From positions 1 through 42,550 of the forward strand of contig CALVJP010000021.1 of assembly GCA_944332215.1 (NCBI GenBank): a stretch of DNA of 42,550 bases, in the 5' to 3' direction. Shown in pieces: positions 9,604-32,466 of the stretch. Positions within the stretch are counted from its first letter, which is position 1; every line of letters starts with the position of its first letter. The position numbers and the translations under genes are program-made. Origin of the DNA: an uncultured Bacilli bacterium. Lineage in GTDB: Bacteria > Bacillota_I > Bacilli_A > RF39 > UBA660. A model generated the notes under the pieces. The model ran no database searches. It saw only the letters and a list, made by a program, of their open reading frames with translations, and was not told the DNA's origin.

Positions 9604-9789
9604 TTATCCACCAACTTAAATATTAAGAAAATAGGGGAATAACTTCTTTTATTAACATATGTGTATTATTTAAAATTTATGCACATTGTGTATAAATTAT
9701 TTTTCCACAAATTATGTGGAAAAAACTAAAAATCCCTTATTTTTTTATAAAAAAAGAAATGTGGATAGTTTTTTTTAATTTTTTCCACA
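9604..9789. promoter_or_regulatory. oriC part 1: DnaA-box cluster upstream of dnaA
   Basis: TTATCCACC 9604, TTATGCACA 9677, TGTGTATAA 9687, TTTTCCACA 9701, TGTGGAAAA 9715, TGTGGATAG 9760, TTTTCCACA 9781. Confidence 0.88.
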
Positions 9790-11193: not shown

Positions 11194-11322
11194 GGGATAA
11201 CTTAAAGTATTCCACAATAAATAAACAGCTAAAAATATCAAAATACTGTTTATTTTAAAGCGAAAAACTTAGTTTTCCACTTTATCCACATTAATAATAA
11301 AAATATATTTAATAAATAAAAA
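11192..11322. promoter_or_regulatory. oriC part 2: DnaA boxes and probable DNA-unwinding element
   Basis: AGGGGATAA 11192, TATTCCACA 11208, tandem TTTTCCACT/TTATCCACA 11273-11290, then a pure A/T tract with TAA repeats; gene strand switches across this locus. Confidence 0.85.
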
Positions 11323-16199: not shown

Positions 16200-18674
16200 A
16201 TGGATCATAGTAGAGATAGATTAGAAGAAAACAACATAGTTAATGAAATAGAAACATCATTTTTAGAATATTCTATGAGTGTTATTGTGGCGCGTGCTTT
16301 ACCTGATTTGCGCGATGGTTTAAAGCCTGTTCACCGCCGTATTTTATATTCAATGTATGAATCTGGTTATACACCAGATAAACCGCATAAAAAAAGTGCG
16401 AGAATTGTTGGAGATGTTATGGGTAAATATCATCCTCATGGTGATTCTAGTATTTATGAAGCCATGGTGAGAATGGCTCAGGATTTTAGTTATCGCTATA
16501 TGCTGGTTGATGGCCATGGTAACTTTGGAAATATTGATGGTTATGGTGCAGCAGCTATGCGTTATACAGAATCTCGATTATCCAAAATATCTTTAGAATT
16601 ATTAAGAGATATTAATAAGGATACTGTTGATTTTGATAATAATTTTGATGAAACAGAAAAAGAGCCAACGGTTTTACCTTCGAGATTTCCTAATATTTTA
16701 GTTAATGGAACTATGGGAATTGCGGTTGGAATGGCTACCAATATTCCACCGCATAACTTAGGCGAGGTTATCGATGGTTGTATTGCTTATATTGATGATC
16801 CAACTATTGATACCTTAGGTTTAATGCAACATATTAAGGGGCCAGATTTTCCAACAGGAGCCATTATCTTAGGTAATAGTGGTATTAAAAAAGCTTATGA
16901 AACCGGAAAAGGGACAATTACTGTTCGTAGTAGGGCAACTATCGAAGAAAAAAATGGCAAACAATATATCATTATTGATGAGGTTCCATATGGTGTGAAT
17001 ACTTTTGATCTTAAAAATAAAGTAGCTGAATTAGTCCATAGTAAAGTGATTGAGGGAATATCTGATTATCATACTGATTTAAAAGAGGGAATTAAAATTA
17101 CGATTACCTTGAAAAAAGATGCTAATGCTCAAGTTGTTTTAAATAATTTATATAAACATACTCAATTCCAAATTAGTTATGGCATCACTTTATTAATGCT
17201 AGATAATGGCGTTCCTAGGACTTTAGGTTTAAGAGATATTATTTCAAAATATATTGATTATCAAAAGGAAATTATTATTAGACGAACTCGCTTTGATTTA
17301 AATAAAGCGGAAAAACGCGTTCATATTTTAGAGGGATTAAAAATAGCCTTAGATAATATTGATGAAATCATTAAATTAATTAAAGCTTCTAAAAGTGATG
17401 AACAAGCTCAAACAGAGTTGATGGAACGCTTTGCTCTTACGGAAATTCAAGCCACGGCGATTCTTGAAATGAAATTAAGACGTTTGACTGGCTTAGAACG
17501 AGCAAAAATTGAAGAAGAATTGAAAGAATTATTAGAAAGAATCGCTTATTATCAAGAAATTCTAAATTCTGAACAAAAAGTTTTAAATATAATTAGAGAA
17601 GAATTGTTAGAAATTAAAAACAAATATAGCGATGAACGACGAACTGATATTGATATGACGGCGATTGACTATATCGAGGATGAATCATTAATTCCGGTGG
17701 AAAATATCGTTATAACTTTAACTAATCGTGGCTATATTAAACGCATGAATAGTGAGACTTATAAAACCCAAAATAGAGGTGGCGTAGGTATTAAGGGAAT
17801 GAGTACGAACGAAAATGATTTTGTGGAAAATCTTATTTCCATGACCACGCATGACTATTTAATGTTCTTTACTAATCATGGAAAAGTTTATCGTGTTAAA
17901 GGTTATGAGATTCCTCAATTTAGTAGACAGTCTAAAGGTTTACCAATAGTTAACTTATTACCATTAGAAAAAGATGAAATAGTCAAAGCTATGCTAAAAG
18001 TTAGCCCTAGTGAAGAAAAAAACAATATTGTATTTTGTACACAAAATGGTTTGATTAAAAGAACTGCTTTGAAAGAATTTGAAAATATTCGAACTAATGG
18101 GAAAATAGCGATCACTTTAAAAGAAGGCGATCAATTAATTTCGGTTAAAAAGACCAGTGGCGAAAATGAAATCATTATTGCTTCTTCAAATGGACGAATG
18201 ATCCGTTTTGATGAAAGAGAAATTAGAATTATGGGTCGTACTGCTGCGGGCGTAAAAGGTATTGATTTAGATAATGGTATTTGTGTAGGATGTGAAATAG
18301 CCGAAAAAGGTGAGCAAATTTTAGTAGTTACTGAAAATGGTTATGGAAAACGGACTGATACTGAAGAATACCGTATGACTCATCGTGGAAGTAAAGGCGT
18401 GAAAGGTTTAAATATTACAGATAAAAATGGAAATATTGTTGCTTTTAAATTAGTACATGGTGATGAAGATCTTATGATTATTACTAATAGTGGTATGATA
18501 ATTAGGTTAGCTGTAGAACAGATTTCTAGCACAGGCCGTGTTGCTCAAGGCGTTAGATTAATAAATCTAAAAGATGGTCAAAAGGTTAGTAATGTTGCTT
18601 TAATTGCTAAAGAAGAAAATGATGAGGAAAATTTAGACGAATCAAACATGATCGAAAATAGAAATGAAGAATAA
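16200..18674 (+). CDS. gyrA: DNA gyrase subunit A
   Basis: [24 protein letters not shown], GyrA-box QNRGGVG. Confidence 0.98.
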
Positions 18675-18676
18675 AC

Positions 18677-19278
18677 AATGTTTCACGTGAAACATTGTTT
18701 TCTTTTTCACTATCTAGTTTACTAATGTTTCACGTGAAACATTGAAATATAGTAAATAATAAAGTAAATTGTTTTTTAATAATTAGAAATAGCGATATAT
18801 AATTACAATTAATAATATTTAATAGTTAATAATGTTTCACGTGAAACATTGGGATATAGTAAATAATGAAGTAAATTTTTTTTATAATTAAAAATAGTGA
18901 TATATAATTTCAATTATTAATATTTTAATGGTTACTAATGTTTCACGTGAAACATTGGAATATAGAAAATAATAAAGTAAATTGTTTTTTAATAATTAGA
19001 AATAGTGATATATAATTTCAATTAATAATATTTAATAGTTAATAATGTTTCACGTGAAACATTGGAATATGGAAAATAATAAAGTAAATTATTTTTTTTA
19101 ATAATTAAAAATAGCGATATATAATTTTAATTAATAATATTTAATAGTTAATAATGTTTCACGTGAAACATTGGGATATAGTAAATAATAAAGTAAATTG
19201 TTTTTTTTAATAATTAAAAATAGTGATATATTTTAATTAATAATATTTAATAGTCAATAATGTTTCACGTGAAACATT
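18677..19278. promoter_or_regulatory. Seven perfect parS sites (TGTTTCACGTGAAACA)
   Basis: 16-mer starts at 18679, 18726, 18833, 18939, 19046, 19155, 19261; each extended to the 20-bp palindrome AATGTTTCACGTGAAACATT; matches the Spo0J/ParB consensus TGTTNCACGTGAAACA. Confidence 0.93.
18724..19278. repeat. Tandem repeat: five ~107-bp units plus a terminal parS
   Basis: Unit lengths 107, 106, 107, 109, 106 bp; near-identical, very AT-rich linkers between invariant parS palindromes. Confidence 0.95.
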
Positions 19279-19321
19279 GTTTAGATTGCATTTTTTATTA
19301 AAATCATATAATATATTAATT

Positions 19322-19394
19322 GGCACAATGTTTATATCTGAAACAGGTCAGGGTCGGAAGACAGCAGCCTTAAGGATCACTAAACATGTGTGCC
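19322..19394 (+). ncRNA. ffs: Small (4.5S-type) SRP RNA, about 73 nt
   Basis: Helix-8 motif GTCAGG-GTC-GGAA-GAC-AGCAGC; terminal pairing GGCACA..TGTTTA / TAAACA..TGTGCC; T-run downstream; TTGCAT-17-TAATAT promoter at 19286-19314; next to tadA/dnaX. Confidence 0.92.
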
Positions 19395-19412
19395 TTTTAA
19401 TTAGGTGATAAT

Positions 19413-32248: not shown

Positions 32249-32254
32249 TGGAAA

Positions 32255-32466
32255 GAAAAGCCACGAAAGAGAGAAAAGTAGGTAACTTTATAGAGAGTTT
32301 ATGGTTGGTGCAAATAAACAAGGTGACTACTCGAAATGGCTCTGGAGCTGTCTAACTGAATATTTAGGTTAGAACGAGGACATGCGTTAAATGTAGAAGG
32401 CAAGCACAGCTTGTAAATTAAGGTGGTACCACGTCAATCACGTCCTTATGTTAAGGGCGTTTTTTT
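32255..32466 (+). ncRNA. T-box riboswitch with Met (AUG) specifier
   Basis: AGTA, AGAGA and GGTGCAA stem I motifs; GAA-ATG-GC specifier loop (ATG 32336-32338); T-box AAGGTGGTACCACG 32420-32433; terminator ACGTCCTTA..TAAGGGCGT plus T-run 32440-32466. Confidence 0.92.

Follow-up and report, generated by a model that had tools for sequence, protein, structure and literature searches.

A tandem-repeat parS array between gyrA and ffs that looks like a multi-site chromosomal centromere in an uncultured Bacilli bacterium

Given that seven perfect copies of the chromosomal parS site are packed into the short spacer behind gyrA in this genome, six of them at almost equal distances, we asked whether the array is the centromere of the chromosome, whether its regular period carries a function of its own, or whether most of the copies are by-products of recent repeat slippage. 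The window, i.e., the whole 42.5-kb stretch of DNA analyzed, is contig C21 of a draft genome (G000; 1.08 Mb, 74 contigs, 86% complete, 31% GC).

Seven parS sites in the spacer between gyrA and ffs

The 20-mer AATGTTTCACGTGAAACATT has seven exact matches in the window, all within 18677-19278, a number that was reached in none of 100 dinucleotide shuffles (shuffle mean 0.01). Its inner 16 bp are consensus parS with the core TGTTTCACGTGAAACA, and all seven copies match the palindromic 16-bp parS consensus TGTTNCACGTGAAACA exactly. The match starts are those of copies 0 to 6 in the following list, which also gives the features that bound and orient the array.

9677..9789, no strand: DnaA-box cluster 5' of dnaA, used as the oriC reference (five TTWTNCACA boxes)
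16200..18674, plus strand: gyrA, upstream boundary and syntenic anchor in relatives (824-aa ORF, 72-82% identical to the array-adjoining gene in same-genus loci)
18673..18710, plus strand: terminator-like hairpin made of parS copy 0 and flanking AAAC/GTTT (12-bp stem, 4-nt loop, then the T-rich tail TCTTTTTCAC)
18677..18696, no strand: parS copy 0, exact 20-mer, starting 3 nt past the gyrA stop codon
18724..19278, no strand: tandem array of five parS-plus-linker units and a closing parS (Tandem Repeats Finder, unit alignment)
18724..18743, no strand: parS copy 1, exact 20-mer
18831..18850, no strand: parS copy 2, exact 20-mer
18937..18956, no strand: parS copy 3, exact 20-mer
19044..19063, no strand: parS copy 4, exact 20-mer
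19153..19172, no strand: parS copy 5, exact 20-mer
19259..19278, no strand: parS copy 6, exact 20-mer, 35 nt 5' of the SRP RNA gene
19314..19409, plus strand: ffs, small SRP RNA gene, downstream boundary (Rfam RF00169, 66.6 bits; gathering score 40)

The start-to-start intervals are 47, 107, 106, 107, 109, and 106 bp, in agreement with the first-pass annotation, where six parS sites at 107/106/107/109/106 bp and a seventh 47 bp upstream had been described. By Tandem Repeats Finder, the repeat extends over 18719-19279 (period 109, 5.2 copies, 91% matches, 2% indels), and the unit alignment divides it into five full units of 106-109 bp, each consisting of the 20-bp parS core and a linker of 86-89 bp, closed by a sixth parS. 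The five linkers are 84-95% identical in pairwise comparison, and the variable columns of the unit alignment number 0 of 20 in the core versus 26 of 90 in the linker (hypergeometric P = 0.0024), so the proposed combination of a core that is invariant in all seven copies with varying, AT-rich linkers holds. The GC content of the linkers is 10-14% (11.7%), whereas seven further intergenic regions in the window have 20-29%. Unit 5 had been singled out for indels that partly compensate one another; its T8 tract and 3-bp deletion are real, but the compensation is a description of this unit rather than evidence of a constrained period, since only five units of 106-109 bp are at hand. A CRISPR array was rejected as a candidate, the would-be spacers being 84-95% alike and the repeat being a perfect parS palindrome.

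The gene order around the array is dnaA-dnaN-recF-gyrB-gyrA-array-ffs-tadA-dnaX, with the array occupying the spacer between gyrA and the SRP RNA gene ffs. Because the DnaA-box cluster, the minimum of the cumulative GC skew, and the switch in gene orientation (the latter two at about 8-10 kb of the window) lie close together, we place the array 7.4-9 kb from oriC, in keeping with the distance of about 7.5 kb first suggested and measured here from the DnaA-box cluster; a single further DnaA box is found at 11282. An origin-proximal position is expected of a chromosomal ParABS centromere, and the array has it. Elsewhere in the window, a T-box leader at 32254-32450 on the plus strand (Rfam RF00230, 121.8 bits) is unrelated to the array.

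Genome-wide sites and the partition proteins

Whether the array holds most of the parS sites of the genome had been raised as a check by the first-pass annotation. At up to two mismatches, it holds all of them in the 86% complete draft, and at three mismatches two further weak matches appear. A genome devoid of parB, which would have undone the centromere reading, is not what we found. An operon of soj (265 aa) and spo0J (291 aa) lies on another contig than the array (C46), with the Soj protein, a deviant-Walker ATPase, encoded directly upstream of parB. The best solved relative of the 291-aa ParB is B. subtilis Spo0J (6sdk, E 2e-62), and the alignment with 6sdk retains the pattern KSR...N...GHAR, corresponding to R173 and G201 in Caulobacter numbering, the residues described in PMC7383237 as specifying parS in ParB proteins. 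SMC is encoded as well (SMC hinge at 97.4 bits). The translated 291-aa ParB also contains GERRLRAS, which we take to be the GERRxRA CTP-binding motif. The genome therefore combines a cognate ParB carrying parS-type recognition residues with a ParA/Soj partner and SMC.

Contig C66 encodes, on the minus strand (L006:223-1794), a further member of the ParB family, 523 aa long, whose closest match is Noc (7ng0, E 4e-59) and which has the Noc-type residues Q173, K179, and R201. In this paralogue, a long P/Q/T-rich low-complexity linker is followed by a short C-terminal domain. No NBS-like palindrome (TATTTCCCGGGAAATA type) is present in 18677-19278 at up to three mismatches, and an array of interleaved parS and Noc sites was accordingly rejected as a candidate. 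Noc-site-like sequences are few in the genome, the best being C21:25773 (one mismatch) and C66:4090 (two mismatches), the latter of which adjoins the gene of the Noc-type paralogue.

Conservation of place and sites among relatives

Almost all other species of the genus (23 of 24) have parS at up to one mismatch, with a median of six sites, and in all 16 same-genus loci gyrA, ffs, tadA, or dnaX lies beside the parS cluster; 11 of these are flanked on both sides (gyrA on one, ffs or tadA on the other), the others being truncated where the contig or locus ends. Outside the genus, we examined 30 loci, each from a different genus of the family, and every one carries at least one of the markers gyrA, ffs, tadA, and dnaX by its parS cluster, part of which is located between tadA and dnaX in some of them. 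A survey of one genome per genus across 120 genera of the family detected exact parS in 107 and none in 13, many of which are incomplete; at least three sites were present in 79 genera and at least five in 36, with a maximum of 18. Genomes from other families (n = 16) have 0-5 parS, often two, 230-1400 bp apart and in the same place. The likely history is that an ancestral parS just after gyrA was repeatedly amplified in this family. Four loci from public MAG records labeled Muribaculaceae or Methanobacteriaceae (L042, L073, L102, and L097) encode, beside a parS array, GyrA proteins 60-75% identical to that of the Bacilli family, at 27-31% GC, and are probably mis-binned contigs.

Taken together, the parS consensus, the uniqueness of the sites in the genome, the presence of ParB, Soj, and SMC, and the conservation of the locus in genus and family make the "compact centromere" of the first-pass annotation a fair reading, and we consider it probable that the array is the centromere of this chromosome, a single origin-proximal locus of seven parS sites that loads the Spo0J-type ParB.

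While the place is conserved, the architecture differs between species of the genus, with arrays of 36-38 bp x 7 or 48-49 bp x 12, two-site super-units of about 400 bp, and irregular clusters of 8-10 sites. Periods found in relatives include 36-37, 42, 48-49, 53, 61, 74, about 115, and about 200 bp, within an overall span of about 35 to 230 bp. The array belongs to a known kind of element, of which it is a compact form, and this element changes fast between related species. DnaA boxes add to this diversity: the array of our genome has none (TTWTCCACA), and a combined array of parS and DnaA boxes was rejected as a candidate for it; 12 of 15 same-genus arrays carry one to four, 30 in total versus 0.15 expected. 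Among the congener loci (L021-L036), such DnaA-box-like motifs are interleaved with parS, for instance at L027:2682-2740, at L034:2676-2730, and in the L025 linkers, often in the arrangement 'TTTTCCACAG-N4-parS' or 'parS-N15-TGTGGAAAAC' just before ffs.

Does the number of sites then matter, or is only one parS functional or needed, with the extra copies being neutral products of recent slippage that will collapse? Period and copy number vary widely among relatives, the units studied here are young by the similarity of their linkers, and one public contig lacks three of them: this 457-nt contig of run X2 joins 18806 to 19129 and so skips 322 bp, with 61 nt shared at the joint, reflecting either a real shorter allele or k-mer collapse, as collapse at k=31 would also give the skip. 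Moreover, a single parS is reported to be enough for segregation in several model species (PMC8299390 and PMC4368675), so seven sites may be more than needed. However, the arrays of the relatives are of two ages, young tandem repeats whose linkers are 83-100% alike and old clusters whose linkers have fallen to the similarity of shuffled sequence, and the old ones would not be expected under neutrality to look as they do: congeners L025, L029, and L034 retain 8-9 perfect 16-mers despite linkers at shuffle-level identity. That the sites stay perfect while the linkers diverge to noise supports a function. The orthologous arrays L027 (G006) and L029 (G003) offer a direct comparison. They agree in 85% of their columns; what sets them apart is the exact duplication of one 101-bp unit, together with a large indel in the last linker. 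The alignment shows duplication of units directly as the mode of array change. Across 8 x 16 shared core positions (128), they show no difference. By simple arithmetic, the probability of 128 unchanged positions at about 15% divergence is below 1e-8, from which we infer that each parS is kept by selection; judged by these substitution patterns, the sites are under clear purifying selection. The confinement of variable columns to the linkers of our own array and the retention of three or more sites in 79 of 120 genera also speak against neutral copies, and gene conversion alone would have homogenized the linkers too. We thus regard neutral slippage as unlikely to account for the extra sites.

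A benefit of multiplicity would also fit published work on B. subtilis ParB, which in the in vitro experiments reported in PMC8299390 condensed DNA with 7, 13, or 26 parS, with a force that rose with the number of sites. DNA with 1, 2, or 4 parS was not condensed, and the authors tie more parS to a higher rate of clamp loading.

At first glance, the period itself also invites a functional explanation, namely, that about 107 bp places all sites on one face of the DNA while the AT-rich linkers are bent or serve as binding sites for a second protein, as the first-pass annotation had proposed. The unit lengths of 106-109 bp are narrowly distributed and close to 10 helical turns, the linkers are unusually AT-rich, and the spacings between neighboring sites fall most often at 100-119 bp (27 of the 114 locus-unique gaps in 47 genus and family loci). 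Smaller groups of spacings occur at 40-49, 60-69, and 160-199 bp, and kinship of the genomes may contribute to this distribution. Under closer inspection, with a turn taken as 10.5 bp, successive sites of our array lie 0.10-0.38 turn out of register, and the 136 gaps (114 of them locus-unique) of the 47 loci show no helical phasing in Rayleigh tests that assume 10.0, 10.5, or 11.0 bp per turn (R 0.06-0.11, p 0.2-0.7; at 10.5 bp per turn, R 0.08-0.09 and p 0.3-0.5, with R 0.09 and p 0.31 for all 136 gaps). Periods of 36-37, 48-49, 61, and 74 bp in relatives would put neighboring sites on different faces, and young tandem duplication gives a narrow range of lengths anyway. The one-face placement thus fails on the drift between units, on the lack of phasing over 47 loci, and on the variation in period. 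Bending fares no better, as the AA/TT power of the linker at 10-11 bp does not exceed that of 1000 shuffles, a comparison with little power for one 87-bp unit. For a second linker-binding protein, blastn-short searches with the 87-bp linker against 178 other loci and its own genome returned, beyond the five copies themselves, only AT-rich chance matches of 13-27 nt and no homologue, and the linkers contain neither a Noc site nor a DnaA box. Small ORFs in the array are inconsistent and span only 22-43 aa. We therefore hold a phased nucleoprotein array to be very unlikely. The first-pass annotation had also stated that arbitrary spacing in relatives would point to neutral slippage; the spacing is indeed arbitrary, which removes the phasing, but the functional reading stays, with the sites under purifying selection.

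Transcription signals offer a further reading, in which the palindromes would mainly be terminators or attenuators of gyrA and the linkers repeated ffs promoters. Directly after gyrA, copy 0 and its flanks do form the 12-bp-stem hairpin with a T-rich tail listed above, and a consensus scan finds two terminator-like sites versus 0.1 expected in shuffles; from its position and shape, the copy-0 hairpin is probably the gyrA terminator. Yet the T-tail is present at copy 0 only, and a terminator does not need a 16/16 match to parS in seven copies kept across the family. As for the promoters, TTAATA-N16-TATAAT occurs on the plus strand in four of the five linkers, but unit 5 has lost the putative -10 element through a deletion, and promoter-like consensus matches are not enriched over shuffles (14 versus 10.2 +/- 3.0). 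The array also matches no Rfam family at gathering thresholds, and altogether we find it highly improbable that transcription signals explain the array. The arrangement of a parS followed by a T-run recurs in congener L025; in L027, L029, L031, and L034, a separate GC-rich hairpin lies directly after the first parS instead.

The copy number of seven is provisional, coming from one short-read metagenome bin. Public data comprise 22 runs available as contigs, of which four (X1, X2, X4, and X9; short de Bruijn contigs) were compared; none of the compared contigs spans the whole array. Contigs of the four runs, from four studies, match pieces made of a whole linker and both neighboring sites with 0-7 differences (for example, X1 records 5 and 6 and X9 record 26; one run may be the source sample), and other contig joints with sides of 21-28 nt are merely parS of other organisms. 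Although the genome is a 74-contig draft and some relatives have their arrays at contig ends, where such repeats break assemblies, it is scarcely credible that the array is a mis-assembled single-parS region, given units that differ at 26 alignment columns with a longest exact internal repeat of 61 bp, the linker-plus-two-site pieces, and the presence of tandem parS in other phyla within records at chromosome level (L060 and L079 in a 3.5-Mb chromosome record, L100 in a complete genome).

Known systems, proposed mechanism, and meaning

The first-pass annotation had singled out the array as a candidate for an undescribed system. This goes too far, as dense chromosomal parS clusters and tandem plasmid centromeres are already in print (PMC3899335 and PMC3177203, respectively). 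In Myxococcus xanthus, 22 parS sites are crowded into 3 kb at a distance of about 4 kb from parA, and the cluster is bound by ParB in EMSA (PMC3899335). Both loci consist of many consensus 16-bp parS at roughly 100-150-bp average spacing in non-coding DNA near the origin, and the ParB-bound state of the M. xanthus cluster has its presumable counterpart in binding of our array by the chromosomal ParB of the ParABS system. The M. xanthus cluster is irregular, and PMC3899335 never uses the term "tandem"; in our array, parS forms the core of each unit of a homogeneous repeat. In addition, the present locus lies between gyrA and ffs, away from parAB, in a genome of about 1.1 Mb rather than 9.1 Mb, and its arrangement is hypervariable at one syntenic site over more than 100 genera.

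The repeat structure itself has its closest parallel in sopC of plasmid F, with 12 direct repeats of 43 bp that each contain a 16-bp inverted repeat bound by SopB (PMC3177203). Like sopC, the array is a tandem direct repeat with one 16-bp palindromic ParB-family site per unit, and it would likewise assemble a multi-site partition complex. The two differ in that sopC is a plasmid element of type Ia with another site sequence, a SopB-type ParB, and a 43-bp period, whereas the array is chromosomal, follows the universal chromosomal parS consensus, and has a period of 107 bp. sopC adjoins sopAB. The array is not on a plasmid beside its own parAB or sopAB but in the chromosomal dnaA-dnaX context, with parAB outside the 42.5-kb window (soj-spo0J on C46).

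With the Spo0J-parS system of B. subtilis, the array shares the site consensus and the type of ParB (best PDB match 6sdk). The natural parS sites of B. subtilis are single and dispersed over the origin region and the published arrays synthetic, whereas in our genome a single parS locus was found, which is a natural array. Such engineered arrays contained 16 tandem parS in vivo (PMC7614844) and 7-39 parS in vitro (PMC8299390); they show that ParB foci are recruited to tandem sites and that condensation grows with the number of parS. Full-text searches of the literature turned up no account of natural chromosomal parS arrays in tandem-repeat form, nor of parS sites in this lineage.

Dense clusters as such are widespread. 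When one genome per species was scanned for three parS sites spaced 91-121 bp apart, at least 119 stretches came up, belonging to many phyla and some of them in chromosome-level records. Among the matches listed, 76 have five or more clustered sites and 21 are true tandem repeats; 81 fall outside the gyrA-linked clade, 12 of them tandem repeats. One 3.5-Mb Hyphomicrobiales chromosome record has highly regular tandem parS arrays in two places (L060 and L079, 49-50 bp x 8-9), and further arrays of this regularity were seen in a member of the Bacteroidetes (L038, 99 bp x 7), in Ruminococcus (L093, 57 bp x 9), and in another member of the Bacilli (L061, 36 bp x 15).

The array looks like a real multi-site parS centromere in tandem-repeat form, with ParB binding predicted from site and protein. 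Following the established ParABS model, ParB dimers would bind each 16-bp palindrome together with CTP, close as sliding clamps, and leave onto the flanking DNA. Packing seven sites into 600 bp would multiply the rate of loading and gather a single partition complex beside oriC; this complex would be moved by Soj/ParA and recruit SMC. The tandem form may have arisen when a parS-plus-linker segment was duplicated, by slippage or unequal recombination, at the ancestral parS just after gyrA, and copy 0 may in addition provide the stem of the gyrA terminator. On this view, the linkers would be spacers devoid of a specific function, with selection acting on the sites, and probably on their number, rather than on the period.

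It is tempting to speculate further that the gyrA-ffs parS locus of the whole family, a large group of gut Bacilli with small genomes, behaves as a satellite centromere, in which units repeatedly duplicate, homogenize, and decay (periods of about 35 to 230 bp, copy numbers of 1 to 18). Selection would meanwhile maintain many perfect sites for ParB loading in one place, as all ParB and SMC loading of these genomes would be confined to it. The DnaA boxes in the units of most congeners would physically couple segregation sites to the replication initiator, a coupling lost in the genome studied here. We put this forward tentatively, as a possibility that we lean somewhat against rather than toward. 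If it is true, the family would be a natural experiment on why the number and clustering of parS vary. A review asks why the number of parS varies though one often suffices and what drives their clustering (PMC7333895).

Taken alone, the window adds a modest gain, a clean "pure parS" example that is of interest mainly as a member of a hypervariable, family-wide series. Bacterial chromosomes can, on this reading, have centromeres built from tandem repeats, as plasmid F does. Together with its relatives, the locus forms a natural series at one chromosomal position in more than 100 genera, with 0-18 sites and periods of about 35-230 bp, from young tandem repeats to old clusters with still-perfect sites, which permits comparative and biochemical tests of how the number and spacing of parS relate to ParB clamp loading and SMC recruitment.
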